IMG/VR virus record: IMGVR_UViG_3300032116_000116
Span: 1 to 64,000 of that record
DNA: 64,000 bases
From: an uncultured virus (IMG/VR IMGVR_UViG_3300032116_000116)
Lineage: Duplodnaviria > Heunggongvirae > Uroviricota > Caudoviricetes
Reading direction: 5' to 3' (one strand)
Under the pieces are notes generated by a model. It saw nothing but the letters and a program-made list of their open reading frames with translations. It was not told the DNA's origin and did no database searches. Position numbers and translations under genes: made by a program. This document shows, piece by piece, positions 27,247 to 58,006 of the stretch (positions are counted from its first letter, which is position 1; every line of letters starts with the position of its first letter).

Positions 27247-27685
27247 AGTTTTAATTTTTAATTGTTTCACAAATATACACCCTCAAAATGTATATTTCCA
27301 AATTTTTTTTTCCCTTTAACAAAACTTTAACATTTCGGGGGTGAAGGTTCGGGGTGACTTTTTTCGTGGCGAGAACCTACAAAGATACAAAATTATTTGT
27401 TAATAAAAAGTTAAAGTTTTCGTTAACAAAATTTTAAGAAAAAAAATTTGGAGGTGAACCCGTGAAGGTTTGGATTTTCTGTGGCGTGTAGGAAAAAAAC
27501 CACAAAGGTACGAAATTATTTGTTAATAAAAAGTTAAAGTTATTATGAGCCAGAGAAAAAGTTTTCCGGGTGATCCGGGGTTTACCCGTAAAATTCTTTA
27601 ACATAACATTAACATTCGGGTTGATTGTTTTGGGGTGTATAAGGTGTATATTTGTATATCGTTCACAAGTTAAAACTCTACTACT

Positions 27686-28060
27686 ATGTTAAAAAGAACT
27701 CTCACACTCGGACTTCATCATTGGACTGACAATGACTTAATCCTGAACTTTTATGTTACCAAATTCGGTACTCGGTACATTCATTTGAAAACCGAAGAAG
27801 AACTCTCCAAATTCATCGGTACAACTCCTTGTTCGTTTACCAAACAACAGATGAACTTCCGTTACCTTATGGGGTGTAAATCAAATGTCCTGACTGACTA
27901 CTCCAAACTTCAAAAGTTGGTGTTTGAAATGTTTGATGAAATCTCCTTCTACGAATTTCATCAAATCGTGAAAAAGATAGTTGGACAAGATGAATACGAA
28001 AGAAATAAATTCTTTGTGGAAAATGGATATAACCCTGAACGAATGATAATGATAAGTTAA
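27686..28060 (+). CDS. Early hypothetical protein
   Basis: Own promoter and terminator; no Ala. Confidence 0.75.
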   Translation: MLKRTLTLGLHHWTDNDLILNFYVTKFGTRYIHLKTEEELSKFIGTTPCSFTKQQMNFRYLMGCKSNVLTDYSKLQKLVFEMFDEISFYEFHQIVKKIVGQDEYERNKFFVENGYNPERMIMIS

Positions 28061-28080
28061 TCGGGTTGGAAACTGAAACG

Positions 28081-28110
28081 AAACCTCAACAGAAATGTTG
28101 GGGTTTTTTA
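28081..28110 (+). terminator. Intrinsic terminator; same sequence near 31558
   Basis: AAACCTCAACA-GAAA-TGTTGGGGTTT then T-tract. Confidence 0.8.
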
Positions 28111-28113
28111 TTT

Positions 28114-28312
28114 CCCACAGAACTCCGTGTTCACCAGATTCGCTGGTGGTAAATTTCTTTGGCTTGTAGAACCAGTTAGAAGATGTGGTTGGGGACACCG
28201 CATGCGAAAATATTTCTGTGGCGGTTGTCTTACATAATAGGGGTATTACAGGAGGTTACACGCCAAGGAAATTCCATAATCCCGGATCACCTGTCGTGTC
28301 ATCGTATTACAC
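28114..28312. repeat. Inverted-box element (compound copy)
   Basis: AGAACTCCGTGTTCACCAGATTCGCTGGT head; TTTCTTTGGC and TTTCTGTGGC...GCCAAGGAAA. Confidence 0.85.
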
Positions 28313-28391
28313 ATTCACAAAACTTTAACAAAATAAATTTGGATATAAGGGTATAAATTGGTTAACTTTGACGAAACAAACTTTCAAAGTT

Positions 28392-28673
28392 ATGTCTTAC
28401 ACAAAAGAAGAAATCAAAATGAACTTGTCAAGAAACCCTAAATGGATAGAAAGAGCGTTGGTTGTCTTACATAACCTCCAAACTACCGAAGAACAAATCA
28501 CAAACGAAACAATCAAAGAGAATGGGGTTGGTTTTAATTCATCGGATAGTCGGTATCTCTCCTATTGTGCGAAATGGATAAAGGGTGGTAATCACTTAAA
28601 CGAGAAACACCTCACTAAATGTGGTCAGAAACTCCCAAAGTATTGGAAACAAATACACTCAATGATTAAGTAA
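28392..28673 (+). CDS. Early hypothetical protein
   Basis: Start taken at MSYTKEEIK; QT.EEQ...NGVGF pattern. Confidence 0.75.
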   Translation: MSYTKEEIKMNLSRNPKWIERALVVLHNLQTTEEQITNETIKENGVGFNSSDSRYLSYCAKWIKGGNHLNEKHLTKCGQKLPKYWKQIHSMIK

Positions 28674-28727
28674 CTTCACACTCCACTCAAAACATTAAAC
28701 CTCCGATAGTATCGGGGGTTTTTTGTT

Positions 28728-28840
28728 AGAACTCCGTGTTCACCAGATTCGCTGGTAGATATTTTTTGTGGCGGATAGGTACAGATTAACCTACTCGCCA
28801 TGGAAAATTATCCTGATCGCAACAGCGGTTCACGGGGAAA
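28728..28840. repeat. Inverted-box element
   Basis: Same head as 28114; TTTTGTGGCG...CGCCATGGAAAA. Confidence 0.85.
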
Positions 28841-28925
28841 ATTCGTTAACAACATTTTAACAATAAAAATTTGGAAATATAAGGTATAATGTCGTATATT
28901 TGATAAACAATTAAAAACTACTACA

Positions 28926-29105
28926 ATGGACAAAATCACTCTCACACTCCTTCTCCTTACACTCGGACTAATGGGGTTAACAATGTTATTCTCTCACTAT
29001 ATGAGGAATGACAAAATCTCAAACATTTTTCTTCGTGTTTTATTCGGTTTGACAATGATGACATTCACTCTCTTTATGATGGACATTTTTCTCTCAAACA
29101 TTTAA
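28926..29105 (+). CDS. Small membrane protein (59 aa)
   Basis: Own translation MDKITLTLLLLTLGLMGL...; directly after a promoter. Confidence 0.6.
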   Translation: MDKITLTLLLLTLGLMGLTMLFSHYMRNDKISNIFLRVLFGLTMMTFTLFMMDIFLSNI

Positions 29106-29117
29106 TAACTACCAACT

Positions 29118-29456
29118 ATGACACACGAACAACTACACAACTTCGTATCGGAAAAAGGTGAAAGGGAATTTAACCCACAAGAAACCTTACAAGTATTAAC
29201 CCACAACAGAACAACATATTGGTCTTGGGGTGTATCTAAACTCCTTAATATGTTTAATAAGGGGTTATGTTTGAAAGTATCAGGACATCACCACAAAGGT
29301 TGGGTAATCATCACACTCGGTTTTACAGACACTTACTCGGTGTTTTATGTATCAAACAATGGTAAAGTCAAAGATGAACAACACTTGGTCTATTTTGACG
29401 AACTCACCGAAAGGATAGATGATAAAATCGAACGAATACCGATTTACAAACACTAA
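29118..29456 (+). CDS. Early hypothetical protein
   Basis: 112 aa; WSWG...V.G.HH.G.V...DTY...VYFDEL...ID..IE. Confidence 0.75.
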   Translation: MTHEQLHNFVSEKGEREFNPQETLQVLTHNRTTYWSWGVSKLLNMFNKGLCLKVSGHHHKGWVIITLGFTDTYSVFYVSNNGKVKDEQHLVYFDELTERIDDKIERIPIYKH

Positions 29457-29510
29457 TCACGAAATCGTAATACAGAAACCCTCGACAAAAGTCGGGGGTT
29501 TTTTGTTTTT

Positions 29511-29635
29511 CCACAGAACTCCGTGTTCACCAGATTCGCTGGTGGTGAATTTATGTGGCGGATCGTATTACAGATAAAGGTGGTATTACACGCCACATAA
29601 ATTTTTTGGTTCAGATCCAGGTTTCCACCAGTGAA
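29511..29635. repeat. Inverted-box element
   Basis: Perfect 13-bp inverted repeat AATTTATGTGGCG/CGCCACATAAATT, plus outer CTGGTGG/CCACCAG. Confidence 0.9.
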
Positions 29636-29719
29636 ACTCTTTAACAATAGATTAACAAAATAAATTTGGAATATAAGGTTTAATGATGTATATTTGTTAA
29701 ACAATTAAAACATACTACA

Positions 29720-29974
29720 ATGGACAAAAACAAACTAATTAACAGAATTGAAAACATTGGTTTTCTTCTCGGTTGTTTTATCGGTTTATTAACACTTATG
29801 ATGTTGGGGGCGGAACCTACTACTTGGGATGAGGATGGGTTGTACGATTATGAACACCTTTGGGATAAAGGAAATTCGGGTTGGTATGTTATGTGGACTT
29901 GGGTTTGGTCAGTTGTTACTTTGATTGGGTTGATAGTGGTTAGGTCATTCATTAAGAAAAGTTTAACAAAATAA
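29720..29974 (+). CDS. Small two-TM membrane protein
   Basis: Hydrophobic segments; promoter upstream. Confidence 0.7.
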   Translation: MDKNKLINRIENIGFLLGCFIGLLTLMMLGAEPTTWDEDGLYDYEHLWDKGNSGWYVMWTWVWSVVTLIGLIVVRSFIKKSLTK

Positions 29975-30031
29975 ATTTGGTTTTACTCGGTATAAGTTGT
30001 ATATTTGTATAAACAATTAAAAACAAAAATT

Positions 30032-30226
30032 ATGAAAAAGTTTTTCAGTTCTATTCTCGGTTTTCACTTGACAATTATGGTTGGGTTGGTTGTTATGTTT
30101 TACTTCAACAACTTGGAAGATAACTACCTAACAATCATTAACAACATTTTCTTGGTTATGATGTCTTTATCCGTTGTGTTATCGGTGGTCTTATGTTACT
30201 TTGACAAACGAATTTCTAAAAGATAG
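30032..30226 (+). CDS. Small two-TM membrane protein
   Basis: Start taken at MKKFF after a promoter. Confidence 0.65.
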   Translation: MKKFFSSILGFHLTIMVGLVVMFYFNNLEDNYLTIINNIFLVMMSLSVVLSVVLCYFDKRISKR

Positions 30227-30480
30227 TTGTAGTTTTAATTGTGAACGAAACCACTCCGAAAGGGGTGGTTTTTTTATTTGTGGTATTACACAAAACTTGA
30301 ATCGCGGTTCGAGCTGGGATTACACCTTTTTCTGTGGCGATCCGTATTACAGAAACCCACTCGCCATAAAAAAAGTTTACCAGGACGACAGGTATGAATA
30401 TGGTTTTGAAAAATAAATTTGGAATCAAAAAATATAAGTTGTATATTTGTGTATTATCTAACAAATTAAATTTATATCAA

Positions 30481-30822
30481 ATGAAAGAACAAAATGAATG
30501 TAATGGAAAAATGTTTCCGAAAGGTTTTTGGTCAAAGAATGGTAAGCCCACACAAAACGCCTTAATGATGTATTTTGTGTATTTGACACATTTACCTGAA
30601 AGTTGGAAAAAGAAAGTAGTACACAAACCCTCACTCGAAAAAACACGACAATACTTTGATGTTGATTATGGTATTGAATGTATGTTAACTTGGGGGATAC
30701 AATTTGGTTGTAAAAATTCTAAAACGTCAGATGAAAGACACCACGCAATGTCTTTGGCTTATCACGACGCTTTGGGTATGATTGGTCAAGGTTACCGATA
30801 CACCGAATTGAAAATTAAGTAG
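30481..30822 (+). CDS. Early hypothetical protein
   Basis: Start taken at MKEQ after a promoter. Confidence 0.7.
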   Translation: MKEQNECNGKMFPKGFWSKNGKPTQNALMMYFVYLTHLPESWKKKVVHKPSLEKTRQYFDVDYGIECMLTWGIQFGCKNSKTSDERHHAMSLAYHDALGMIGQGYRYTELKIK

Positions 30823-31075
30823 TGTTTGGTTTTAATTGTGAACGAAAAGTCCTCAACGAAAGTTGGGGATTTTTTTTGTCAAGTCACAGACCTCCGTGTT
30901 CACCAGATTCGCTGGTGGACATTTTTTGTGGCTGATCCTATTAGAGAAACCGACAAGCCATAGAAATTTCAGGATGGAAGGTGATCCGAATTCACCTTCA
31001 CAAAATTTTAACAAAAAAAATTTGGAATAAGTATGTATATGTTGTATATTTGTATAAATAATTAAAAAAAACATT

Positions 31076-31213
31076 ATGAAAAAGATTTATTCAGTTATCG
31101 TAGTTATCGTTCTTGTATCATTAACAATGTCCTCTTGTAAAACAAGTGGGTATGGTTGTAAGGGGAAAGAAAGTTGGGGTGGATTGATGAAAAGAATTAA
31201 CAAACCTTATTAG
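31076..31213 (+). CDS. Mini-lipoprotein (45 aa)
   Basis: Own translation MKKIYSVIVVIVLVSLTMSSC-KTSGYGC...; lipobox; promoter and terminator. Confidence 0.65.
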   Translation: MKKIYSVIVVIVLVSLTMSSCKTSGYGCKGKESWGGLMKRINKPY

Positions 31214-31329
31214 TAGTATGGTTGGTTTTAACCCGATGTTTTTACATCGGGTTTTTTATTTTTTTTAACATTTTAGATTTGAAATATAATATTTATTGTT
31301 GTATATTTGTTTAACTAAACCCACTCACT

Positions 31330-31533: not shown

Positions 31534-31793
31534 TCCGTTCGTTCCCTCATAAAGACAAACCTCAACAGAAATGTTGGGGTTTTTTGTTTCTCCACAGAAC
31601 TCCGTGTTCACCATGCTCCCGGTATGTCATTTTCTGTGGCTGATCGTATTACAGGAAGTTAGACGCCAAAGAAATTTCCAACGACCCGGATCAGGAAATC
31701 GCCTGTCGGTTATCTTCACAAAGTTTTAACAAAATAAATTTGGAATATAAAGTATAATGATGTATATTTGTTAAACAATTAAAAACTACTACA

Positions 31794-31904: not shown

Positions 31905-31946
31905 AATAAATTTGGAATATAATAAATAATACCTTATATTTGTGTT

Positions 31947-32057: not shown

Positions 32058-32067
32058 AAAACGAAAT

Positions 32068-32551: not shown

Positions 32552-32820
32552 TTTAGGTTTGGTTTTAATTGTGAAGAAATCCCTCAACGAAAGTTGGGGG
32601 ATTTTCTTTTGGAGGAACTTGAGTCGTGGTTCACCGTGTCTTCAGGGATTTTTTGTGGCTGATCGTATTCAGGTCAACCTCACAAGCCACGGAAATTTGG
32701 TAATCCGAATCACCTGTTTTCCTTCAGGAAATCCTTTCACAAATTTTTAACAAATTATTTTTGGAATAAAAATTTATATGGTGTATATTTGTTATATCAT
32801 TAACAATTAAAACAAACATT

Positions 32821-32988: not shown

Positions 32989-33258
32989 TGTTCTAAATAA
33001 ACCTATCAATAAAAATCCCTGACAATAGTCGGGGATTTTTTTTTCAAACACAAGAAGATGTGATCCGGATCAGCTCGACCGTGGATTTTCTCTGGCTCAG
33101 GTCAACCTACAAGCCAAAGAAAATTAATAATCCAGATCCCGTCCCTGAAATTTTAACAAAACTTTAACACAAAATCCTTTAACAACATTTTAACAATAAA
33201 AATTTGGAAATAGGTAGTAATAAGTTGTATATTTGTATAAACAATTAAAACAAATTTT

Positions 33259-33786: not shown

Positions 33787-34047
33787 GGTATTACACAACC
33801 GAAATATAAGGTAGTCATTTGACTACCTTTTTTTATGTCCATACCTATCCACGAGTCGTAGACAGAAGACGCGTCCGAAAATTTCTCTGGCGGATCGGTA
33901 TTCGTATTACAGGAGCCACGGAAATTTCAACATCTCAGTAGACATCTCCTCGTCATCGTTAAATTCATTATGAAAACATTAACAGAGATTTTTTGGAGAT
34001 ATAAGGTATTACATAGTATATTTGATAAACAATTAAAAACATATACT

Positions 34048-34765: not shown

Positions 34766-35028
34766 TCACTTACCTTTGATAACAAAGTCCTCAACGAAAG
34801 TTGGGGATTTTTTTTGTCCAAAACCCAAGAAGATGTGATCCGGATCAGCTCCATCCGGGATTTTACGTGGCAGATCGGTATTCGTATTACAGAAGCCACA
34901 AAAATTCCACTTCAGGACGACAGGTATGATTCTGATTTTTATTTTAACACTTTTTAACAAAAATAAATTTGGAGTGGAATTGTATATGTTGTATATTCGT
35001 GTATTGTTAAACAATTAAAACTAAACGT

Positions 35029-35678: not shown

Positions 35679-35987
35679 TTTTGGATTATCGTTTCATATT
35701 TACCCCCGATGTTTTTACATTGGGGGTTTTTGTTTCCCCGAACTCACCTTCACAGACAGCTCCATCGGGGAATTTATCTGGCGGATCGGTTTATGGACGC
35801 CACGGAAATTTCTGGATGGAAGGATGCTCCTTCAGAAAATAAAATTTGTTAATAGTTTTTAACAAAATAAATTTGGAATAGGGGTGTATAAGTTGTATAT
35901 TTGTGTTATGAAGAAACTAAAACCTTACATATTTCCGATTATATTGGTTATGTATGTTTTAATTAAAACATTCTTCAAACATTAATT

Positions 35988-36533: not shown

Positions 36534-36893
36534 TTTTTTGTCATAAATAAAATAACCCCCGATGTTTCTACATTGGGGGTTTTTGTTTTTGGGGTATTAC
36601 AACAAGATGTGTTGGGACGGTGAGCAGATCAGGGAATTTCTGTGGCTGATCGTATTACACTCGCCATAAAAAAAGTGGAAGACCAGAGCACCAGTCTTCA
36701 GGAAAAACTTGACTAATTAAAAAAAATGTATTACCTTTGTTTTGGTTTTTCACAGGATATTGGATTAATAACCCCCTTATGTTTCTACATTGAGGGGTTT
36801 TTTGTTTTAACAAAGGTTTAACAATAAATATTTGGAAATATAAGATTTTATTTCGTATATTTGTTCTATCAATAACAATTAAAAATTATTTTT

Positions 36894-37607: not shown

Positions 37608-38210
37608 ATGGAAGCGATTAACACAATTACCAAAGGAAACTACAAATTAGAAATTTTTCAAGAGGATAGTCCCGAAAGTCCAAGAAGTTGGGATAATTTG
37701 GGAACAATGATTTGTTTTCACGGAAGATACAATTTAGGGGATAAACACGACTATAATCATAGAGATTATTCGGGTTGGGAAGAACAGAAAAAAGAAATTT
37801 CTAAACAAGAGAATGTGTGTGTTATCTTACCCTTGTATCTTTACGACCATAGTGGGATAACAATGAACACAACAGGTTTCAGTTGTGGTTGGGATAGTGG
37901 TCAGGTTGGTTGGATAGTAGTATCAAAGGAAAAAGTGAAAAGTGAATACGGAGTAAAAAGAATTACCAAAGATATTATTGAGAAAGTTACCAATGTGTTG
38001 AAAGGTGAAGTGGAAACATACGACCAATATCTTACGGGTGATGTTTACGGGTATAGAGTATCAAAGATTGAAGTGTGTGATAAGGGTTGTGAACACGATG
38101 AAGAAGTAGATAGTTGTTGGGGTTATTATGGAGAGGAAAGTGTGGAGGCGGAAGGTAAAAGGATATTGGAGTATTACATTAAGGAAGAAGAAAAGAGTGT
38201 TTGTTCATAG
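37608..38210 (+). CDS. Conserved phage/plasmid hypothetical protein
   Basis: SPRSWDNLGT...LPLYLYDHSG...WDSGQVG...SCWGYYG. Confidence 0.75.
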   Translation: MEAINTITKGNYKLEIFQEDSPESPRSWDNLGTMICFHGRYNLGDKHDYNHRDYSGWEEQKKEISKQENVCVILPLYLYDHSGITMNTTGFSCGWDSGQVGWIVVSKEKVKSEYGVKRITKDIIEKVTNVLKGEVETYDQYLTGDVYGYRVSKIEVCDKGCEHDEEVDSCWGYYGEESVEAEGKRILEYYIKEEEKSVCS

Positions 38211-38456
38211 TTTAGTTTTAGTTGTTAAAGGGAAAAGGGTATCAGAAATGATACCTTTTTTTATTGCCCGAATTTGCGCTTAAGCTCGAACCAGTGCGCA
38301 ACAGCTCGTGATTTTCCGTGGCAGATCCGTATTACATGCCACAAAAAAATTACCATCCTGAGTCAGCATTTTCCTTCAGAAAAACATTAACAAATTTTAA
38401 CAAATTAAATTTGGAATAAAACTATATTAGTTGTATATTTGTATAAATTAAATTGT

Positions 38457-39041: not shown

Positions 39042-39317
39042 AGATTAAGACAAGCAATCAAGTGAAAATTCCCTGATGTTTCTACATCGGGGTTTTTTGT
39101 TTTATGACTGTAAATAGATTACAGTCTGGTCCAGTGCGATCAGGTTGATTTTCTGTGGCAAATCCGTACTATTGTTGCCACAAAATATTTTCCTGATCCG
39201 GATCACCTCCTCCTTCAGTAAATTCATTAAGAAAACTTTAACATAAATTATTTGGAAATATAAACAAAATAGATTTATATTTGTGTACTATCTCACTAAC
39301 TATTAAACTCAAAAAAA

Positions 39318-40010: not shown

Positions 40011-40265
40011 CATTATCGTATTACATTTAAGGGGTATCAGAAATGATACCCTTTTTTGTTGCTGTCATCATAGCTCGATCGCAGCGCGCAACAGCTCGTG
40101 ATTTTCTGTGGCAAAATCGTATGACACAAAGTGACTTGCCACATAATATTTTACAGTATTTGGGCTGGGGTCGTGATCCGATCCTTTAACAAAAGATTAA
40201 CGTAAATTATTTGGAAATAAAACTATAATAGTTGTATATTTGTGAAACAATTAAAAACAAATATT

Positions 40266-40631: not shown

Positions 40632-41465
40632 ATGAAATTCGCGTCAACCGACAATCTTAATTGGACAGTTCGTCAGGAGCCTGTTCAAACCGAAAGTGGT
40701 ATCGTAATTCCTGGACAACTTGCGATAGTTCGTAACGATACGAATGTTCCTTTGTCAATTATGGCTGATGGTTATCAACCGTATCAAAATCACGAATTGG
40801 TTGAACTACTTGAAAGGGTATCAAACCAAACCGGTATGGAAATTAAAAAATCGGGGTTATTCGGGGACGGAGAGAAGGTGTTTATTCAGTTGAAGTCAAA
40901 CGACCTTAAACTCGGTAATGATAGGGTTGAAGGATATTTGACAGGTATCAATTCCTTTGATGGTTCAACATCACTCGCATTCGGACCCAGTAATGTTACT
41001 ATCAGTTGTACCAACTCGTTCTTCGCCGCGTTTCGTGGTCTTAACACAAAGGTTCGTCATACAAAAAATATGGTTGTTCGTATTGACGACATTTGTAGAA
41101 GTTTAATGGGTGTAGTTGAGGAAGAAAAGAAAATGTTTGATAACATTGTGAAGTTGTCGGAAACTCGTGTCGGAACAAAAAATGTTGATGATGTATTACG
41201 GACATTATTCAACATTGATAAAAGTGTTAATCTCAAAGATATTGAGGCGATATCAACCGTAACTCAAAATAAAATATCTCGTTTCTATGTTGATTTGAAC
41301 GGAGAAATGAAGGAGAAGGGAGATAATCTTTGGGGGTTGTTTAGTGGAGTAACTAAATACACAACTCACTCAATGAGTAAGGAAGACAATACCGAAAAGA
41401 AAATGTTTGGTGTGTACGGAAATCGTGAAAGGAAAATCTTTAACGACTTGGTTGAATTGGTATAA
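40632..41465 (+). CDS. DUF932/DUF945-like phage/plasmid protein
   Basis: LNWTV...YQPYQN...G....GEKVF...NSFDGS...CTN...RHT...LWGL...VT.Y..H. Confidence 0.8.
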   Translation: MKFASTDNLNWTVRQEPVQTESGIVIPGQLAIVRNDTNVPLSIMADGYQPYQNHELVELLERVSNQTGMEIKKSGLFGDGEKVFIQLKSNDLKLGNDRVEGYLTGINSFDGSTSLAFGPSNVTISCTNSFFAAFRGLNTKVRHTKNMVVRIDDICRSLMGVVEEEKKMFDNIVKLSETRVGTKNVDDVLRTLFNIDKSVNLKDIEAISTVTQNKISRFYVDLNGEMKEKGDNLWGLFSGVTKYTTHSMSKEDNTEKKMFGVYGNRERKIFNDLVELV

Positions 41466-41724
41466 CCCTATAAGTGAATCGTGTATAACCCCAGCAAAAA
41501 GCTGGGGTTTTTTGTTGCTTTTCACCAGCCGATCGCAACAGCGCAACAGGTGGGATTTTCTGTGGCAAGAAAATTACAGGGGAAACGACTCGCCACAGAA
41601 ATTTCAGATGACGCCGGGCTAAAAAGTTCGTAGCCCAGATCATAAAACACATTAACAAAAGATTAGCACAAATTATTTGGAAATAGAACTATAATAGTTG
41701 TATATTTGTATAAATTAAAACATT

Positions 41725-42770: not shown

Positions 42771-43048
42771 AGTTAAAGGAGCCGTTAAGTGTATAAAGAT
42801 TAAACCGACAAAAGTTAAAAAGAAAAAGTAACCCAGAGAAATCTGGGTTTTTTGTTGCTTTTCACCAGCTGATCGCAGCGCAAACGCAGCTCGGATTTTC
42901 TGTGGCAGGATCGACACACTTGCCACAGAATATTTTCCTGATCCCGGACATCTTTTTCTTCAGAAATCCTTTAACAAAAGATTAGCACAAATTATTTGGA
43001 AATAGAACTATAATAGTTGTATATTTGTCTAAACAAAAACAAATCACA

Positions 43049-45411: not shown

Positions 45412-45597
45412 GTTAGATAGTAAGTGTGAACAAAGACCACTCCGAAAGGGGTGGTTTTTTTTGTTACGAACTCAGAATCTGCGGTCCTGAAGACGACGGG
45501 GAAATTTTCTGTGGCAGGATCAAACTCTTTAACAAAACATTATGAAAATAAATTTGGAAATAGAAAGTATTATATTGTATATTTGAAAAAAAACATT

Positions 45598-48053: not shown

Positions 48054-48327
48054 TATGAGAAACCTAATCTGTACCTTTTTAACCCCGACATAATGTTGGG
48101 GTTTTTTGTTGCTTGAACTTTGCTGGTCCTGTGCGCAACAGGTGAGATATTCTGTGGCAGACTAAACACACTCGCCACAGAAATTTCAGATGACCGGGGT
48201 CAGGACAGTTTCAGGGTAAAACTATTTATATCTGTTAAGAAAATTTTAACAAAATAAATTTGGAAATACAAAGAAATAAGTTGTATATTTGTAATGTCAT
48301 TTAATTATTAACTCAAAACTTTTTCAA

Positions 48328-48597
48328 ATGAAAAGTAAAGTAAAAAAACAAAAACACACCCTACTCAAAGGAGAGGGAGCAAACCAACACACTCTTTACG
48401 GAGAGTTTAAGATTGATGAAGAAAAGTCCTTTGCAACATTGGAAGTAACAAAGGATAGTGTATTAAAACACGAACAACCTGACGGAAGTTTCTCAAACGA
48501 ACATCAAGCCTTAAAGATTGACAAAGGTAATTGGGTTATGGGAAAACAAGTTGAGTACAATCCGTTTTCTCGTTCAGTAAGTCAAGTTTGGGACTAA
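48328..48597 (+). CDS. Conserved phage hypothetical protein
   Basis: L..GE....H...L.HE...EH......G.W....Q.EY.P. Confidence 0.7.
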   Translation: MKSKVKKQKHTLLKGEGANQHTLYGEFKIDEEKSFATLEVTKDSVLKHEQPDGSFSNEHQALKIDKGNWVMGKQVEYNPFSRSVSQVWD

Positions 48598-48623
48598 TTT
48601 ATTCACACACTAAATCAACTCAA

Positions 48624-49028
48624 ATGGCAAATCCGTTAATTCATTCTAAATCCAGTGTTAAACGCTGGGGTGGAAAGGTAGAAGATTATTTACCTATTCA
48701 CGAACTTATTGATAGTCCAAAAATGACTATGAATAATAATAGTGCGAGGTTACTTACTCACAATACCTGGTTCGCATACCACATTGTTCCGAAAATCTTT
48801 GGTTACAACATTGTTAATTCTGACGGAAAGTCCGTTGATGTTGTAGATATTGCGATGTTACATATTGCAGAAGATTTCCGAATGAAGTTTGTACCGACAC
48901 CACAGGACTATCTTAAACATTTAGAAGTCCAACCCTGGATGAATAATGGAGTTAAGCCCGTTGATAATCCCGAAGCGTACGAAATTGTTAAAAACTTAAA
49001 TCAAAAATTACACGATTATGCAAACTAA
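48624..49028 (+). CDS. DUF6915-like protein
   Basis: MANP..HS.SSV.RWGG..EDY..IH...DS.K...H...HI.ED...PT..DY. Confidence 0.65.
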   Translation: MANPLIHSKSSVKRWGGKVEDYLPIHELIDSPKMTMNNNSARLLTHNTWFAYHIVPKIFGYNIVNSDGKSVDVVDIAMLHIAEDFRMKFVPTPQDYLKHLEVQPWMNNGVKPVDNPEAYEIVKNLNQKLHDYAN

Positions 49029-49698
49029 TGAAGCAGTAAAACTCTGGAAGGAGTTAGGTATTACACACGCAAATATGGAGTTCAGTTGTGGTGGAGATAG
49101 TATGAATGACTACCACTTTACTTTCTACAAGAAAAACGATAGTAAGAAAAAGAATGTCCCCGAAGAAATTGAGGTTAATAGTCCCGAATTGGAAAGTTAC
49201 TTTGACAAAGAAGTGTTTGATGAAGTTGAGTTTTATGTAAACTCTGACGGACACTACATTGGGGAGCACGGAAATGTTTATATTGAATTAGATGATAGTG
49301 ATGAAGATGAAGAAGAACATACTTTCATTTATTCAAAAAGTGCCAAAAGTGAGTGGTCGGAGAGAATTGAAGAAACAATGGAAATCAAATTATCAAAGAA
49401 GATGTCTAAATTTGTTTCGGAGTATGTTAGTAACATTAACGGAGAAGAAGGGAATTGTACTATCAATTTCAAAAAAGATTTCATAATGTCTGACGAACAA
49501 GAAAAGTTGGTGGGAGAATTGGAAGAAATTGTATTACAAGAAACCGCAGACTTTGAGCCTTCCTATGATGAAGGGGAGAAAGAAGATTACTATACTTTCA
49601 CAACAAATGACGGAGATGATAGAGAAGAATTAACTATCAAAGATGATAAGTTGTTGGTATCTGTTGGAACTTCGTTTATCATTTACAAAGAAGATTAA
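49018..49698 (+). CDS. Acidic DUF6878-like protein
   Basis: GI......FSCGGDS motif; very D/E-rich. Confidence 0.6.
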   Translation: MQTNEAVKLWKELGITHANMEFSCGGDSMNDYHFTFYKKNDSKKKNVPEEIEVNSPELESYFDKEVFDEVEFYVNSDGHYIGEHGNVYIELDDSDEDEEEHTFIYSKSAKSEWSERIEETMEIKLSKKMSKFVSEYVSNINGEEGNCTINFKKDFIMSDEQEKLVGELEEIVLQETADFEPSYDEGEKEDYYTFTTNDGDDREELTIKDDKLLVSVGTSFIIYKED

Positions 49699-49726
49699 AT
49701 TATTAACAAATTAAATTAAATCAGTT

Positions 49727-50398
49727 ATGCAAATCGTTATCAATAATTTACAATTTCCGTATGACATTGGTTGTCGTATTTTGAAAGTGAAACACAAAGA
49801 TTGTCCTTTCAGTCAGTTGGAAGATATTTGGGAAGATATTACCCCGATTACTTTCAAAGAGATAGCCCAATTAGAGAACTTGGAACAACGCCGTGTGGCT
49901 ATGTTGAACTATGGGTTAGATAGATTGGTCAAAGAGATTAAACCCGAATTGATTGATAAGAAAACATTGAAGAAAACAACAACTTGGGTTAGTCAAGACG
50001 GACAACTTGTTACCAAAAAATTCAATGACACTTATGAACTTTACAAAGTTAATGGGGAAGTTTTCGGTAAGGCTCGTAATTCTTGGTCAAAACCTGATGA
50101 TTGTTACTATGTAAAGTGTAAGGACACAAGTACCGACAGAGAGTATTTCATTTGGGTTGATATGAAAAGTGTGGCAAACACAAATGGTCAGGGTTGGAAT
50201 TGGGATATTAAAAAGGTCAATGCAATTCAGGCAATTGCTTGGACTATTCAAACGGACATTCCCGAAGGTTGTATTGAGAAGATTGTAAGACAGGGAGATT
50301 GTGTGTTGATTAAACCGATAGGGAAGAAAGTAAAGTCGGAAAGTACAAGACACTTAACGGAAAGTGAGTACAAAAATCTGTTGGTCGCTGAGAGTTAG
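49727..50398 (+). CDS. Conserved phage hypothetical protein
   Basis: NLEQRRV...C.DTST.REY...A..AIAWT...RQGD. Confidence 0.7.
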   Translation: MQIVINNLQFPYDIGCRILKVKHKDCPFSQLEDIWEDITPITFKEIAQLENLEQRRVAMLNYGLDRLVKEIKPELIDKKTLKKTTTWVSQDGQLVTKKFNDTYELYKVNGEVFGKARNSWSKPDDCYYVKCKDTSTDREYFIWVDMKSVANTNGQGWNWDIKKVNAIQAIAWTIQTDIPEGCIEKIVRQGDCVLIKPIGKKVKSESTRHLTESEYKNLLVAES

Positions 50399-50632
50399 TA
50401 GTTTTTGACAAATGAAAGGGGGTACAATTAGTACCCCTTTTTTTATGCACTTTTTGTGCACTCGATCTGCATATTAACAGGTGAGATTTTCTGTGGCGGA
50501 TCAACTATACTCGCCACAGAAAATTCTTGGTTCAGATCCTGAAATTTTTAGATATAATATCTTAACTAAACTTTAACGAAAATAAATTTGGAATCAAAAT
50601 ATATAAGTTGTATATTTGTAAAAATTAAAATT

Positions 50633-51397: not shown

Positions 51398-51764
51398 TAG
51401 TTTTTGTTTTGATAGAGAACCCACCAGTAAAATGGTGGGTTTTTTATTGCTGTTACCAGAGCAGATCGCAGCGCAAAGCACAGTGGAATTTCTGTGGCAG
51501 AATAGTTTTATTGATTATCAATGAGTTATGAAAATAGCAAAAGTTGCAAAAGTTGCAGCAACACCAGAGCAAGTTGCCAGATTCAGAGCTATGGATTTTC
51601 TGTGGCAGACATTTGTATTACGCCACAGAATATTTTTACCGTGCCGGGCTGGGGTCGTGATCAAAAATATTTTTGCAAAATTTTAACAAAATATATTTGG
51701 ATTATAACTTTATCCGTTGTATATTTGTGATGTCATTAATTATTAAACTCTAAATTTTATTAAC

Positions 51765-53147: not shown

Positions 53148-53158
53148 AATAAATCTAT

Positions 53159-53374: not shown

Positions 53375-53380
53375 ATCTAT

Positions 53381-53779: not shown

Positions 53780-53783
53780 AACT

Positions 53784-54380
53784 ATGCCAAATTGGTGTTC
53801 AAACTCAATCACCATAACAGGTGATGAGGAAAAAATTAAATTCTTAAAGAATGTAATTGAGAATGGTATCCCCACTGAAAAACGACAGGAAGCGAATGTT
53901 TTCATGACTCTCGTCGGAATTCCTCCTGACATGAATCTGTATGAATATGAACAGAAGTGGTATGGAACCAACATAGATAATTGGGGGACCAAATGGGATG
54001 TGGCATATAATGAATCTTATTTCTCTTTTGAGGATACTGAAATAACCATGTCACCTGATACAGCTTGGTCACCACCAATTGGATTTGCTCAAAGTTTGGC
54101 AAGGAACTATGGGGTAAAGGTGGAGATGTACTATGAGGAACCAGGTTCCGACTTCTGTGGTAAAACTATAATCACTGAAGATGGTACGTTGACGGAGGAG
54201 GATTATGATTTTGTACATGGGAAATATGTCTTTGATAAAGAAGGTTTTTGGAATGAAATTATAAATAATATAGAGTTTGCAAAAGAAGATGATGTATCTT
54301 TGGAAAACTTCATATTGGATTATGGTTATGTGAATGAAGAAGACAAAAAAGAGATTGAGAAATTATATAATGAATCATAG
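53784..54380 (+). CDS. DUF1281/Api92-like ferredoxin-fold protein
   Basis: MPNWCSN...WGTKWD...TAWSPP...YEEPG. Confidence 0.75.
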   Translation: MPNWCSNSITITGDEEKIKFLKNVIENGIPTEKRQEANVFMTLVGIPPDMNLYEYEQKWYGTNIDNWGTKWDVAYNESYFSFEDTEITMSPDTAWSPPIGFAQSLARNYGVKVEMYYEEPGSDFCGKTIITEDGTLTEEDYDFVHGKYVFDKEGFWNEIINNIEFAKEDDVSLENFILDYGYVNEEDKKEIEKLYNES

Positions 54381-54425
54381 TTTTTATTTTTAACCAGCTG
54401 TTTATACAGCACAAATCAAACAAGT

Positions 54426-54905
54426 ATGGGTAGAGTTAACAAACTTACAGAGGGTGTGTTCACCAGTATCGTAGGTAATCAAACAATCATTCCTTCGTAT
54501 GACAAATTCTTAAATGTTCAGGACGATTTAAAAAAACCGAGTCAGGAACTTAAGAAATTAATCACACAATACAAGAAAGAAATAACATCAAATAAAACAA
54601 TATTTGAGAAGTTAGCAAAGCTTGAGGATGTGATTATGCAGATCCGTACACGGGACAACCTGTCCAATGATATGATCAAATTGAACATTGTCCGTGAGTA
54701 CATCTACGCTCGTATTCCTTTCCATCGTAACGATAAGGAATCAAACGACATCCGTGTCATCGTTGGATTAACTGAATTCAATGGTGTGGAAGTGGACAAG
54801 ATGTATGACAACAAAGAGTTTATGGACAAAGCCAAGAATAAATTGGTTGAGGCTATGAACGAGATTATTAACCAAAATTTGGAAACTGTAAATAAAATAG
54901 ATTAA
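54426..54905 (+). CDS. Hypothetical protein
   Basis: 159 aa. Confidence 0.7.
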   Translation: MGRVNKLTEGVFTSIVGNQTIIPSYDKFLNVQDDLKKPSQELKKLITQYKKEITSNKTIFEKLAKLEDVIMQIRTRDNLSNDMIKLNIVREYIYARIPFHRNDKESNDIRVIVGLTEFNGVEVDKMYDNKEFMDKAKNKLVEAMNEIINQNLETVNKID

Positions 54906-54906
54906 T

Positions 54907-55824
54907 ATGAAAAAGATTAACAATGTATTATCATTATGTGACGGTATCTCAATGTTCCAATACGCATTGAAAAAATCAGGAATTGAGTACAAGAATTATT
55001 TTTCAGGTGAGATCAGTGAAACTGCTATGAGTATAGCAATGAAGAATTTCCCGAAAACAAAACAACTTGGTGATATCCGTAACATCAAAGGAAAAAATTT
55101 ACCTGAGATCGATATTATGGTTGCGGGATTTCCTTGTCAACAATTCTCAAGAGCAGGTAATGAAGATGGATTAACAGATATTCACGGAAATGTTCTCGAC
55201 ACATACAAGAAGTATCGTGAAGCCGATAAAAAGGGATGGATTAGAGAAGGATCTCAATCACACATTTTTTGGGAAGTATATAGGATCTTCAAAGAAGTTA
55301 AACCGAAGTATTTCATTTTTGAGAATGTTAAAATGGATCCAAAGTGGATGTACATCATATCAACATCTTTCGGTGTTAGTCCCATCTTAATAGATTCAAA
55401 ATTGGTTTCCGCTCAACATCGTGAGAGATACTATTGGACAAATATTCCTGGTGCTATAATTCCAAAAGATAAAGGAATTCATCTTTCAAGTATTATTCCT
55501 GATGCGATCGGTGGACACGGTGTTAGAAACATTGATACAGGTAAGAAAACTCCTGAAGGTAAAAAAGTTTGGCGTAAGAACGCTACAACAAGAAAAGATG
55601 GTAAGGCCAACTGTTTAACAACAAGAAAGGGTAACTGTTCCAAAGTGGAATTAAAGGACGGAACCATTAGACAAATCACCATCGAGGAAGCTGAACAACT
55701 TCAAAATCTCCCGAAGAACTATACCAAAGTTCCTGGTGTTGCTGAAGGTAAGAGGTGGCACGCCATCGGTAATGGGTTCACCGTCAATGTATTTGTTCAC
55801 CTATTAAAAGGTCTTAAAAAATAA
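54907..55824 (+). CDS. DNA (cytosine-5)-methyltransferase
   Basis: LSLCDG (motif I variant), GFPCQQFS (IV), FENV (VI), QHRERYYW (VIII), IGNG (X). Confidence 0.9.
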   Translation: MKKINNVLSLCDGISMFQYALKKSGIEYKNYFSGEISETAMSIAMKNFPKTKQLGDIRNIKGKNLPEIDIMVAGFPCQQFSRAGNEDGLTDIHGNVLDTYKKYREADKKGWIREGSQSHIFWEVYRIFKEVKPKYFIFENVKMDPKWMYIISTSFGVSPILIDSKLVSAQHRERYYWTNIPGAIIPKDKGIHLSSIIPDAIGGHGVRNIDTGKKTPEGKKVWRKNATTRKDGKANCLTTRKGNCSKVELKDGTIRQITIEEAEQLQNLPKNYTKVPGVAEGKRWHAIGNGFTVNVFVHLLKGLKK

Positions 55825-55875
55825 ATTTTGTGGAAAACATTTCACATATTATATTTGTAATCTAAATCCAAGTGT

Positions 55876-56223
55876 ATGACAAATAGCAATAGAATGTTAG
55901 TTCAGGATCTACAGAAACAACTGATCAATAAGGTTCTTTCCTTTATGGATGAGAATGATTTAAATATGGTGGAATTAAAAACCCCACTCAGGATCTTTGT
56001 TGAAGAACCATCATTTGATGATTATGTTATGGTTCCAATTGTGGCGAGGTCATTGTATGCTGATGGTTCCATCGGAGCTTATGATGAAGAAATAAAGATC
56101 GAGAACTGTAGTATCTACGAGATCGCATACATAATGGATGTTCTCGAGAGTGGGGACTACACGGTAGATGAAGACGACTTTATCGATCCCGCTGGTGGAC
56201 GAGGATTACATTCTCACATTTAA
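55876..56223 (+). CDS. Hypothetical protein
   Basis: 115 aa; promoter upstream. Confidence 0.65.
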   Translation: MTNSNRMLVQDLQKQLINKVLSFMDENDLNMVELKTPLRIFVEEPSFDDYVMVPIVARSLYADGSIGAYDEEIKIENCSIYEIAYIMDVLESGDYTVDEDDFIDPAGGRGLHSHI

Positions 56224-56248
56224 ATTTCGTAACTCAAAACTCAAGTAT

Positions 56249-56821
56249 ATGCACACTATCAATCTCGGAAAAAAAGTGGTCGTATCCGACCCTTGTTACA
56301 CCATCCCAACTTGGTGTCAAGCTGTAATCGAAAATGTAAAACCCGGCGTGTATCACACGACAGTCAGGAAACACGACGCTGGTGATTGGGGAAATCGTTG
56401 TTCAATGGTCTTTGCAATCCACGAGGAGTATGTTAACTTTGATCACCTGTTACACGGGAAATGGGAAGAACACCCAGCATCCATCGGAGTTGACTCGGGT
56501 CAATGTGGGATCTTTTCTTTTGAATCCTACAGGAATGACGAAGTTAAGTTCGATTTCGAACCATATGACTTCGGTAATGATTACCTTAGTAATAATGAGG
56601 GTGGTGACCTGTGGTATCGTCATATGTGTAAACACACATTGAGTGATCAATCTTGGGGAGTGTATGACAGTGGGATTGTTTCCAGTTCAGGATTCGGAGA
56701 TGGAGCTTATCAATTGTATGTTGTTAAGAAACGAAACAAGATCGTGGCCTTCGCCATTGACTTTGGAGTTGAGGAGGGTAAGTACATCGACTTCGATTAC
56801 AGGAAGAAAGAATTAGTTTAA
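56249..56821 (+). CDS. DUF4241-like protein
   Basis: VSDPCY...GVDSGQ.G...SG.GDG.Y. Confidence 0.7.
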   Translation: MHTINLGKKVVVSDPCYTIPTWCQAVIENVKPGVYHTTVRKHDAGDWGNRCSMVFAIHEEYVNFDHLLHGKWEEHPASIGVDSGQCGIFSFESYRNDEVKFDFEPYDFGNDYLSNNEGGDLWYRHMCKHTLSDQSWGVYDSGIVSSSGFGDGAYQLYVVKKRNKIVAFAIDFGVEEGKYIDFDYRKKELV

Positions 56822-56887
56822 GAACTTGGTGGTCAAATGACCACCATTTTCATTTAAACCCTATTATAAAAATATAAATCTAATATT

Positions 56888-57316
56888 ATGTACTCAGATA
56901 ACTTGATCAGAATCATCAGACCATCTCAGTGGATTAATTTAATCTATATCGTTCTTGGTATTGCTTTGATCCAAACTATCTTTGTTCCCCTTCTTGCTGT
57001 CATCAAGATGTTGGATGTATATTTTTGGAGATATGAATTCAGGGAGAGGACCATCATTGAAAGAAGGGGAATATTATCCGTGACAAGGAAGGAGGTTCAC
57101 TTCTACAGGATTAAATCCATCAGAATCGACGAACCACTGTGGATGAGAATCTTCGGACTGTCCAAAGTATCCATAATCACCTCCGATCAATATCATCCTG
57201 AATTGGTTTTATACGCTGTATCCGACGGACATTACCTCCGTGAGTACATTAGATCTAACACCGATCAGTGGAGAAAGCTCGAAGGAGTTAAAGAATTTGA
57301 CCTATATAACCTATAA
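56888..57316 (+). CDS. Membrane protein with bacterial PH (bPH_2) domain
   Basis: TM segment then Y......I....G......E....RI.....P...RIFG...V.I.TSD. Confidence 0.75.
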   Translation: MYSDNLIRIIRPSQWINLIYIVLGIALIQTIFVPLLAVIKMLDVYFWRYEFRERTIIERRGILSVTRKEVHFYRIKSIRIDEPLWMRIFGLSKVSIITSDQYHPELVLYAVSDGHYLREYIRSNTDQWRKLEGVKEFDLYNL

Positions 57317-57604
57317 TTTATGATAAGTAAGATTGCTTGGTTCTTTGATTACTACATCTTGTACTTCCTGTACAATGAGAGAAAGATCAACAGGTACCAT
57401 CGTAATATGATCAACAAGTACGGGGACAAATACAGAATACGAATCGACAGGTGAGATATGACCCCTCGATTTTCTGTGGCAAATCCATATGGGAGAGGTA
57501 TGCCCCGACAATAAGTTCTTTGAAATCCTTACTGGGATAAAGTTTTGTTAAAAAAAGTTACGGCAAGATTTTGTTTTCTACCATTCATTTTGTATGTTTA
57601 TGAT

Positions 57605-57817
57605 ATGAAGAAAACAACAACCAAGGCTACTCGTGGAACAGGTTCCAAGACAGCCAACAAGACCCGCCGCACCACTTATGTTGCGGTAACGAACAATGTT
57701 TACCATGACGGTACTAGTTACCGTGTACGTGTAAGTGTTGACGGTATCAAGTACAGCAAGAACTTCACTTCGAAGAAGAATGCTATTGCTTACCGCAACC
57801 AGTTGTTGTCCGCTTAA
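57605..57817 (+). CDS. Small basic AP2-like DNA-binding protein
   Basis: NVY..GTSYRVRV...G..YSKNF...K.AI.YRN. Confidence 0.6.
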   Translation: MKKTTTKATRGTGSKTANKTRRTTYVAVTNNVYHDGTSYRVRVSVDGIKYSKNFTSKKNAIAYRNQLLSA

Positions 57818-57909
57818 TTCGGACACAACCTCACACAGGTAAACAATCTCAGTAAGACCTTCGTGGATAAATCCTATACAGGTGTATGGGACCCACGGGG
57901 TCTTTTTAC

Positions 57910-57939
57910 ATTACGGACCTCCCTTCGGTCGGTCCTTCA
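57910..57939. repeat. 30-bp hairpin repeat, copy 1
   Basis: attacGGACCtcccttcggtcGGTCCttca. Confidence 0.85.
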
Positions 57940-58006
57940 GGAAAATGAACATCAGATTTTCCGTGGCATAACTATGCTCATTAATTAACCAAATATATTT
58001 ATGTGT

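Follow-up and report, generated by a model that had tools for sequence, protein, structure and literature searches.

PeSL (promoter-early stem-loop) cassettes of T4-type phages, which Arbiol et al. are also said to have described in 2010, represent the closest described counterpart of the elements analysed here. In the available text of Comeau et al. (2014, PMC4122927), a PeSL consists of a stem-loop joined to an early sigma-70-type promoter and lies between variable T4-type phage genes, for which modular shuffling was proposed. Here, we analyse a 64,000-nucleotide stretch of DNA from an uncultured virus of the Caudoviricetes (IMG/VR record IMGVR_UViG_3300032116_000116), hereafter called the window, in which a block of early genes is punctuated by an array of imperfect palindromes. 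Each palindrome has two arms of ~14 nt around an invariant TGGC/GCCA and typically stands between an intrinsic terminator and the next promoter. Judged from sequence, this family of elements is real, conserved and strand-specific, and it appears to be a member of no described family. We propose, with a probability of roughly 0.4, that the palindrome serves as a terminator-coupled, strand-specific hairpin signal, which would be read in read-through RNA and would either control that RNA or insulate the cassette.

The units of the window are best filed as a variant of the terminator-promoter boundary cassettes to which PeSLs belong. As in PeSLs, terminator-like stem-loops and early promoters share intergenic stretches, and the composite units of terminator and early promoter occur in many copies, all co-oriented, clustered between the small variable genes of a hyperplastic region in a T4-superfamily phage and associated with gene-order plasticity. 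PeSL stem-loops, however, stand directly 5' of the promoter, as far as the available text of the PeSL study describes them, whereas the units here carry an extra module of 100-150 bp between terminator and promoter, with a covarying palindrome of its own and the motif GTATTACA. The promoters of these units, additionally, are of the Bacteroidota -33/-7 type.

Other known systems resemble the elements in part. The RNase III hairpins of T7 early genes are likewise conserved, irregular hairpins that lie between early cistrons and act on RNA; yet T7 early RNA is one polycistronic transcript, whereas each unit here has its own promoter and terminator, and the stems here are short (~14 bp) and sequence-specific, unlike those of T7. 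In the lambda nut site, boxB and boxA show a comparable split into a specific hairpin and a shared motif. A hairpin combined with a short strand-specific motif, one part being system-specific and the other shared, also characterises the opsX sites at which NusG paralogs of Bacteroides (UpxY) are recruited, according to the available text of that study (PMC11685472). Both opsX and nut sites lie in operon leaders before terminators, whereas the elements here lie after terminators and before promoters. Moreover, the motif here is located inside the loop rather than downstream of the hairpin, and there is no resemblance in sequence to the YGCGNAGCR of opsX.

Confinement of the array to the early-gene block

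The window takes up positions 1 to 64,000 of a viral record of 77,752 bp, and this record corresponds, at 99.999% identity, to positions 114,204-191,955 of a 286,785-bp viral contig. Because the initial 134 nt of this 286.8-kb contig recur at its far end with 99.25% identity, the assembly is probably complete and circularly closing, despite being listed in IMG/VR as linear and 86% complete. The early block occupies positions 27271-58000 on the plus strand of the window (141.5-172.2 kb of the 286.8-kb contig) and comprises ~65 small genes, 36 Bacteroidota-type promoter motifs, intrinsic terminators and all of the elements. In protein family scans, the genes of the block are mostly of unknown function and include those for DUF932, SprT-like and ParB-like proteins and a C5 methylase.

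Judged from its proteins, the phage is a distant T4-superfamily jumbo myovirus. Specifically, the 286.8-kb contig encodes tail sheath, gp19-like tube, gp25, T4 baseplate, S77 prohead protease and portal families, gp32, DnaB, primase, an SbcC-like nuclease and an Rnl1-type RNA ligase, together with a T4-type large terminase (TerL) with <30% identity to T4-like phages, including Flavobacterium phage immuto. The promoter type points to a Bacteroidota host. In the protein scans, 87 references were compared with PHROGs and 280 with Pfam, the two lists overlapping, and no RNA polymerase, integrase, transposase or recombinase family was found among the proteins scanned. Contigs were cut into 20-kb pieces, the L-numbered loci; open reading frames (ORFs) shorter than 70 aa, 14 ORFs spanning the joins between these loci, and part of the 70-349-aa ORFs in L026 and L029 fall outside the scans.

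The pattern TTTNNNTGGC matches 48 times on the two strands of the window, compared with 6.82 ± 2.32 times in 100 shuffles that preserve dinucleotides (maximum 12; none of the 100 reaches 48), which bears out the array of inverted boxes that an initial annotation of the sequence had described in the early region. Within 27,340-57,970 lie 44 of these 48 matches, 27 of them on the plus strand (left boxes) and 17 on the minus strand (right boxes). The intergenic DNA of the block holds 21 inverted pairs and six solo left arms, that is, about 27 elements rather than the ~24 first counted, and all are co-oriented with the genes. The spacer between the arms measures 15-39 nt, as in the range of 15-45 bp given earlier, with one spacer of 63 nt outside that range. 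Elements become sparser along the block, as had been noted: neighbouring elements lie a median of 837 bp apart up to 43 kb and of 2,340 bp apart further on. Some boxes are variants that escape the strict pattern, namely the right box GCCACAnAAT, found at 39177, 40138, 42922 and 51622, and, at 48149, the left box ATTCTGTGGC, which opens with ATT.

Beyond the window, a strict pair pattern was scanned through the whole 286.8-kb contig; all 15 of its matches fall within 142.4-164.7 kb, and a reversed control pattern yields none. Exact copies of TTTCTGTGGC number 14 on the plus and three on the minus strand, all 17 in the bins of 140-180 kb. The motif, therefore, does not occur at equal density elsewhere in the genome. 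A scan of viral contigs with the perfect box returned only the same phage and unrelated chance matches. Relatives with changed arms were reached through a protein of the block, as described below. In a scan for TTTGGC-N3-6-GTATTACA, a right arm was present at eight of 35 candidate sites among the matches listed, about six of these eight being seemingly genuine. A covariance-model scan of the whole window against Rfam gave eight weak matches, none on the box hairpin, and a full-text search for GTATTACA found primers and unrelated sequences only. No description of the element family was found in the literature searched or in Rfam; the motif is conserved in relatives and matches no Rfam, attC or REP family.

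The location of the block also bears on the role first suggested for the array, a DNA-level system on first-injected DNA, such as ejection or injection-stop signals or sites for a packaged protein on the DNA that enters first. The array is one-directional, and the block shows in its coding DNA the avoidance of 4-bp palindromes that is expected of DNA exposed early to restriction. However, TerL is of the T4 type, the 134-nt overlap of the contig ends resembles that of an assembly closing into a circle, and the block sits mid-contig at 141-172 kb; therefore, nothing marks the block as a fixed leading end. Additionally, the elements follow terminators and operon ends instead of distance along the DNA. 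We regard this role as extremely improbable and not supported.

Anatomy of the unit and coupling to terminators

A full unit starts at a stop codon, which is followed by a canonical intrinsic terminator, a GC-richer flank A of ~44 nt and the left arm, (G)GAT-TTTCTGTGGC. The loop, which often reads nGATC(C)GTATTACAG..., leads into the right arm, GCCACAGAAA-TTT, and then into a GC-richer flank C that often ends in CCTTCAG(G)AAA. The unit closes with an early promoter that is strong and of host type, TTTAACAAAA...TAAATTTGG, N19, TATATTTG, behind which a leader of ~25 nt, with neither a Shine-Dalgarno sequence nor a hairpin, reaches the ATG of the next gene.

Terminators are abundant in the block: at 27.3-47.3 kb, 35 terminator-like sites are found versus 9.1 ± 3.1 in shuffles, and at six places the terminator scan also flags a flank-A hairpin with the T-rich left arm behind it. 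The distance from the end of the terminator T-run to the left arm has a median of 44 nt (interquartile range 40.5-48.5; 55 of 62 elements, six phages), whereas the right arm stands 88-91 nt from the -7 motif in 12 of the 19 window elements and at variable distances in relatives. Hairpins stand upstream of 18 of the 21 promoter junctions that have a run of at least six T upstream, compared with only two of the 16 that lack such a run. The element, therefore, accompanies terminators and operon ends, not promoters as such, and its position after terminators and before promoters is as the initial annotation had stated. The promoter motif itself, TTTG-N17-21-TAnnTTTG of the -33/-7 type, has 36 of its 51 plus-strand copies of the contig within the block.

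Flanks A and C have GC contents of 0.46 and 0.40, versus 0.32-0.35 for the loci, in agreement with the GC-richer elements reported before, and are enriched in C (0.24 vs 0.14 in the block). A reading of the flanks as Rho sites was rejected, as they are not both C-rich and G-poor. Flanks taken from orthologous junctions resemble each other no more than do flanks from unrelated ones, which indicates that flank sequence is free and that only length and GC-richness are kept. Blocks shared between flanks are nevertheless present within the genome, as had been claimed; of these, AGAACTCC...GCTGGT occurs in three exact copies and two variants and not in the four copies stated, whereas the counts of two for GAAGATG...CTC and four for GCGCAACAG hold.

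GATC is found 38 times in the intergenic DNA of 27,300-54,905 versus 19.7 expected, being enriched within the elements despite the avoidance around them, usually with single copies in flank A, in flank C and immediately behind the left arm (TGGCnGATC). Enrichment in the same intergenic DNA is also seen for GCGC (8 vs 4.1 expected). In three elements (28142, 29538 and 30911), flank A contains the Escherichia coli Chi octamer GCTGGTGG as part of a CACCAGattcgCTGGTGG hairpin, probably by coincidence, given the Bacteroidota-type host. Among other candidate readings, a coding role of the elements was ruled out because loop lengths are not multiples of three, an antisense small RNA because the minus strand of the window has only five promoter motifs, and a DnaA box because the box, by inspection, does not agree in spacing or sequence.

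Extragenic, imperfect palindromes of genome-specific sequence, present in many copies at the 3' ends of transcription units and in arrays of strongly promoted tandem genes, recall the REP/BIME elements that are associated with RAYT. Such elements would stabilise RNA 3' ends or serve as gyrase or supercoil sinks between strongly transcribed tandem genes. Here, however, the element follows the terminator, at a fixed distance, instead of preceding it; the loops are long and variable, no GT(A/G)G head motif occurs in the elements, and all lie in one 30-kb block. Furthermore, no RAYT gene was found in the 286.8-kb contig, the six frames of which give no match to the Y1 (HUH) transposase family (PF01797) that marks REP/RAYT and IS200/IS605 hairpin elements, while the control was positive in seven of 14 genomes. 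A REP/BIME-like role is, in our judgement, quite improbable.

Pairing of the arms

Thirty-five hairpins from five phages were aligned, with the stem given by hand and five pairs fixed by the search pattern; the relatedness of the phages inflates the pairing and covariation figures of this alignment. In it, 80.6% of the stem cells pair, compared with 71.1 ± 1.4% after shuffling of the 3' letters (reached in 0 of 500), and changes on both sides are seen in 11 of 16 pairs. The covariation score is 0.257 versus 0.132 (0 of 500 shuffles) and drops to at most 0.132 when the partner is slid by one to three columns. The symmetry extends 4-5 nt outside the box and changes there in step, being GATAA/TTATC in L043 and ATTT/AAAT elsewhere.

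Within the window alone, the variable stem positions pair 119 times versus 108 ± 4.1 times in column shuffles of the right arm (p = 0.005). The first pair inside TGGC/GCCA, where the sequence is not conserved, is of Watson-Crick type in 13 of 20 hairpins versus 6.7 in shuffles (p = 0.003), comprising six GC, four AT and three TA pairs, which confirms the co-variation just inside the boxes that had been noticed at first. The second inner pair is formed in four of 20 hairpins versus 1.9 in shuffles (p = 0.04). At one stem position, the third in the 8-nt box, 25 of 62 hairpins have a mismatch. Among the non-Watson-Crick stem cells at positions -2 to 9, 40 are of the G-T type versus 16 of the A-C type, a hint that fits folding of the sense strand. 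Between flanks A and C, pairing within one element exceeds that across elements only slightly (z = -0.28, p = 0.015).

Across phages, the loops range from 8 to 62 nt. Loops of this range make cruciform extrusion from duplex DNA very unlikely and are hardly compatible with a dimer bound to phased half-sites; therefore, the folded form is taken as single-stranded. A hairpin in read-through RNA, which the initial annotation had named as the alternative to a DNA-level system, agrees better with the covarying arms and the fixed 44-nt distance from the terminator.

A motif shared with related phages

The DUF932 protein of the block (40632-41465) has homologues at 61-72% identity in seven further viral contigs, three of which represent one phage according to constant coordinate offsets, leaving five related lineages. 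All five keep the order of the unit parts while the arms differ, reading TGTTTGGC...GCCAA(A/T/C)CA or TGGTTGGC...GCCAACCA; the corresponding arm pairs are TGTTTGGC/GCCAAACA and TGGTTGGC/GCCAACCA, the loops start with nnnCGTATTACA, and GTATTACA is kept. Thus, the TGGC/GCCA core, GTATTACA and the terminator distance are conserved across phages, and the remaining arm sequence is genome-specific.

In the window, GTATTACA occurs 23 times on the plus and twice on the minus strand. The 286.8-kb contig has 24 plus-strand and three minus-strand copies, 23 of the 24 plus-strand copies lying at 140-170 kb. The motif follows the left box after a gap of 2-8 nt, box and motif together forming a composite motif. 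Copies also exist outside the loops: free copies are located in the 3' untranslated stretch between stop codon and terminator (33788-33795, plus strand, and at 40018; at 703 and 5793 in L043), in flank A (30283 and 36594) and just 5' of promoters (28304, and several in L044). For some copies in coding DNA, conservation of the encoded protein sequence is the explanation, as with K-Y-Y-N in the ParB-like gene.

A phage-specific box joined to a cross-phage motif also recalls an activator box with a sigma element. The elements would then be promoters of a second mode, either hairpin promoters for a virion RNA polymerase, like those of N4, or middle promoters in which the box serves as MotA box and TATTAC as -10. 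T4-type phages often place middle promoters beside early ones. The gap between box and motif is variable, however, and the inverted right arm is left unexplained; among the proteins scanned, which do not comprise every ORF, no phage RNA polymerase was found. N4 hairpin promoters have stems of 5-7 bp and 3-nt loops, unlike the loops of 8-62 nt here. Promoters of a second mode are in our view highly unlikely. A sigma-54 reading of GG-N10-GC in the box fails, by inspection, on spacing, and promoters for a crAss-like virion polymerase were dropped, the phage here being T4-like. For phi14:2, the available text describes no common motif upstream of early transcripts (10.1101/2020.03.07.982082).

In one relative (L041; also in L039 and L040), a direct TTGGCAARA box is located ~18 nt 5' of the -33 motif, besides the inverted pair further upstream, at junctions near 2400, 3440, 6950, 8830, 13560 and 17720. 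This box could be an alternative pairing partner of the right arm or a third protein site.

A possible hairpin signal on read-through RNA

We propose that the elements constitute the middle part of composite operon-boundary cassettes in a hyperplastic early-gene block. Starting from what is observed, that is, how the elements are built and oriented, their restriction to the block, their presence in relatives, the covariation of the arms and the coupling to terminators, the palindrome would fold as a single sense strand in the RNA of those polymerases that pass the terminator. Its stem would be recognised by a factor that co-evolves with each phage, and GUAUUACA by a factor conserved among these phages. 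The readers of stem and motif together may then decide the fate of read-through transcription or of its RNA, that is, stop, cut or license it, with the outcome that each early cassette would be insulated. As a side effect, the repeated terminators, the arms and the ~45-nt promoter would supply homology for cassette shuffling, as was proposed for PeSLs. An RNA nature of the folded form, the existence of trans-acting factors and the outcome given here for the signal are as tentative as the proposal itself.

A freshwater RNA library contains 12% of the sampled words, and 29 of its contigs were placed. Specifically, the contig at 32920-33136 extends from a gene end through terminator and flank A into the hairpin, the contig at 32634-32906 covers a hairpin, flank C, the promoter and the next gene, and that at 38081-38294 covers a gene end and the terminator and stops 32 nt past the terminator, in flank A. 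These contigs are compatible with read-through transcription; they carry no strand, may come from contaminating DNA and have no silent control stretch to be compared with, and bins without cover prove nothing.

The phage encodes a NusG-like elongation factor with NusG and KOW domains, by precedent a possible partner of the element. The gene adjoins that of a D12 adenine methylase (Dam-type) at L031:10088-11475, ~230 kb of the contig, the methylase itself occupying L031:10633-11475, outside the window. It is unusual for a T4-like phage to encode a NusG paralog. A search for the NusG-like gene in the contigs of the five relatives gave no match, but these contigs are only 3-27% complete and thus little informative.

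Should the signal govern read-through of terminators, one would learn from it how T4-like Bacteroidota phages time and insulate their early genes. The combination of a phage-specific stem with the shared GTATTACA predicts two trans-acting readers that can be fished out.

Like the limits of the RNA library, several further points weigh against a hairpin read in RNA. The element lies beyond strong canonical terminators, and little RNA may contain it; no trans-acting factor for it was identified. Covariation within genomes is not significant in the five relatives (combined p 0.17), covariation between phages would also be expected from a two-fold protein site co-evolving with its protein, and the excess of G-T over A-C cells could result from base composition. 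Whole elements fold modestly better than shuffles, with mean z of -1.8 on the plus and -1.5 on the minus strand and no strand difference, and flanks A and C are nearly unstructured on their own (z ~ -0.4). Furthermore, left arms are conserved far better than right arms (exact consensus 14 vs 3), exact solo left arms persist at 45506, 51489 and 57471, and the direct TTGGCAARA box, present at several junctions of one relative, fits a binding site in duplex DNA.

The unequal arms, the solo left arms and the direct box also favour an operator in duplex DNA, in which each arm would be a 10-14 bp site for a phage-specific DNA-binding protein that acts as a shut-off repressor of the early promoter or as a roadblock or insulator. 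The box is, moreover, conserved within a genome and different between genomes, the right arm keeps its 88-91 nt from the -7 motif in the 12 of 19 window elements mentioned above, and small DNA-binding candidates are encoded, namely a DnaA domain-IV protein in the genome and a ParB-like protein within the block. Yet the arms are spaced by 8-62 nt without helical phasing, the non-conserved inner pair covaries in the window (p = 0.003), and GTATTACA is strand-specific. The element follows terminators (18 of 21) and is rare at junctions without a T-run (2 of 16), and it is the terminator distance, not the promoter distance, that is conserved across phages. The ParB-like protein is weakened as a reader of the box because it is 84% identical between the window and L038 while their boxes differ. 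We consider a duplex operator possible, though doubtful.

The DnaA domain-IV protein has 112 aa and represents the C-terminal helix-turn-helix domain of DnaA alone (L029:7884-8222), a candidate sequence-specific DNA binder. The ParB-like protein and two divergent neighbour proteins of 480 and 173 aa have no useful match in PDB or Pfam.

Whether the element controls terminator read-through or serves as a recombination site, it offers a practical marker by which early-gene cassettes can be recognised in phage contigs from metagenomes. In giant phages, early blocks hold host-takeover and probably anti-defence genes and are the fastest-changing parts between strains; the element family gives such a block a sharply defined, one-strand signal that is conserved across phages.

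Gene order and cassette shuffling

In the five relatives, homologues of the block genes (45-94% amino-acid identity) follow each other in permuted order, and the block behaves like a hyperplastic region of T4 type. Modules of several genes that have no hairpin inside them are not broken up. For example, a four-gene module at 48328-50398, encoding proteins of 89, 134, 226 and 223 aa, the second of which is 88-94% identical across phages, persists unbroken in each of the three relatives in which it occurs; hairpins bound it on both sides in the window, L041 and L042, while its neighbours differ.

These features would be accounted for if the hairpins were mainly crossover points that move promoter-gene-terminator cassettes, whether by PeSL-like homologous exchange, by cutting of an attC-like hairpin of single-stranded DNA by an unrecognised enzyme, or by cutting of the palindrome by the SbcC/Mre11-type nuclease of the phage. 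Consistent with such a role, gene order is strongly permuted while hairpin-free modules persist, a hairpin follows the DUF932 gene in six of six phages though the downstream neighbour differs, the flanks are mosaics of shared blocks, truncated elements resemble deletion products, and the stems tolerate mismatch around a variable loop, as in attC. Additionally, in three DNA metagenome runs, which contain 65-72% of the words, 43-70% of the placed contigs continue into unlike sequence, which indicates strain-level mosaicism.

Breaks in gene order, however, are not in excess at the hairpins: adjacency is kept in two of five cases with an element versus 13 of 22 without (Fisher p = 0.63; underpowered). 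Thus, of the cassette shuffling put forward in the initial annotation, the heavy shuffling of gene order holds, and a concentration of breaks at the elements is not seen in this test. Among the 24 of 340 strain breakpoints that were listed, none falls in arms or loop, and many are located at terminators repeated within the genome and therefore may be assembly effects. Joints seen in reads were not accepted as rearrangements, with sides of 20-30 nt at within-genome repeats. Moreover, arms of 14 nt are short for homologous exchange, and recombination alone leaves the cross-phage GTATTACA unexplained. The scanned proteins match no recombinase or transposase family; the six frames of the 286.8-kb contig, in which no Y1 transposase was found, also give no match to the tyrosine recombinase family (PF00589), for which the control was positive in 14 of 14 genomes. 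We regard a role mainly in crossover as unlikely; were it true, it would explain how the cassettes move.

The particular likeness to attC sites lies in a co-oriented cassette array, in conserved arms with tolerated mismatch and in a variable centre. Unlike promoterless attC cassettes, however, each cassette here has its own promoter and terminator; no integrase is found, and the arms TTTCTGTGGC/GCCACAGAAA do not match the attC core RYYYAAC/GTTRRRY. We hold it to be quite improbable that the elements are integron-like folded-strand sites, at which an unrecognised enzyme would move early, probably anti-defence, cassettes between giant phages by exchange of one strand. With the same low likelihood, the parts cut or exchanged there would be the conserved arms with their tolerated mismatch and the adjoining GTATTACA.

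Individual elements

All features of this section lie on the plus strand of the window. The leftmost inverted pair, with the 63-nt spacer, is located at 27476-27558 in a divergent control region (27,271-27,685); a direct repeat of ~115 bp occupies this region, each copy of which opens with a left-arm box and carries the AT-rich attatttgttaataaaaagttaaag. The next hairpins are found at 28213-28271, with a 39-nt loop containing GTATTACA, and at 28763-28806, with a 24-nt loop and the inner stem GGATAGG/CCTACTC. The hairpin at 29550-29601 has a 32-nt loop with two copies of GTATTACA and shows a compensatory arm change, TTTATGTGGC/GCCACATAAA; a typical intrinsic terminator precedes it at 29474-29510, and a typical, conserved early promoter, TTTAACAA..TAAATTTGG-N19-TATATTTG, follows at 29640-29695.

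The loop starts with GATCCGTATTACAG in the hairpin at 30329-30372 and with TGATCGTATTACAG in that at 31631-31674, and the hairpin between them, at 30923-30966, carries the loop variant CTATTAGA. Two hairpins are covered by the RNA-library contigs described above: that at 32650-32695 lies within the contig at 32634-32906, and that at 33087-33122, with a 16-nt loop, is spanned together with terminator and flank A by the contig at 32920-33136. Further downstream, the loop is GGATCGGTATTCGTATTACAGG at 33882-33924, AGATCGGTATTCGTATTACAGA at 34862-34904, TGATCGTATTACACTC at 36637-36672 and AGATCCGTATTACAT at 38313-38347, and it measures 16 nt in the hairpin at 35773-35808.

Variant right arms are carried by the hairpins at 39150-39186 (GCCACAAAAT), 40103-40147 (GCCACATAAT) and 51597-51631 (GCCACAGAAT). 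The hairpin 3' of the DUF932 gene, the one whose position is shared by the six phages compared, spans 41557-41601, and the hairpin at 42897-42931 has a short loop of 15 nt without GTATTACA. The four-gene module is bounded upstream by the hairpin at 48149-48183, which has the variant left arm ATTCTGTGGC, and downstream by that at 50488-50522, the arms of which are perfect.

Of the six solo left arms, the first two read TTTTCGTGGC (27361-27370) and TTTCTTTGGC (28154-28163), the latter 50 nt 5' of a full element. Two others belong to truncated elements: at 45506-45515, terminator, flank A and left arm are followed directly by the promoter, and at 51489-51498, terminator, flank A and left arm are present. 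The last two are degenerate elements, with an exact left arm at 57471-57480 that is accompanied by no right arm, terminator or promoter, and with a left arm only at 57958-57967.

Neighbouring genes and palindrome avoidance

Megablast with 6 kb of the block gave no match to cultured phages, and a scan for tRNA genes was empty. Several genes left of the block lie on the minus strand of the window. A 313-aa protein (20,710-21,651) carries a Tae4 domain (type VI secretion amidase effector 4, E = 2e-12) and is probably a cell-wall amidase used by the phage. A free-standing HNH endonuclease of homing type is encoded next to the block at 23,865-24,914, and, further left, a tRNA nucleotidyltransferase of the CCA-adding type at 12,409-13,587; together with the RNA ligase and RNA-repair domains encoded elsewhere, they suggest RNA-repair functions.

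The coding DNA of the block at 27,300-54,905 is strongly poor in 4-bp palindromes. Observed versus expected counts are 11 vs 61.6 for GATC, 4 vs 37.8 for ACGT, 11 vs 56.6 for CATG, 5 vs 32.8 for CCGG, 19 vs 74.6 for TCGA, 0 vs 3.7 for GCGC and 0 vs 6.1 for GGCC. In the rest of the genome, the corresponding ratios are mostly 0.55-0.9, with the exception of GCGC (0.19). This depletion looks like restriction-site avoidance in early-expressed DNA.

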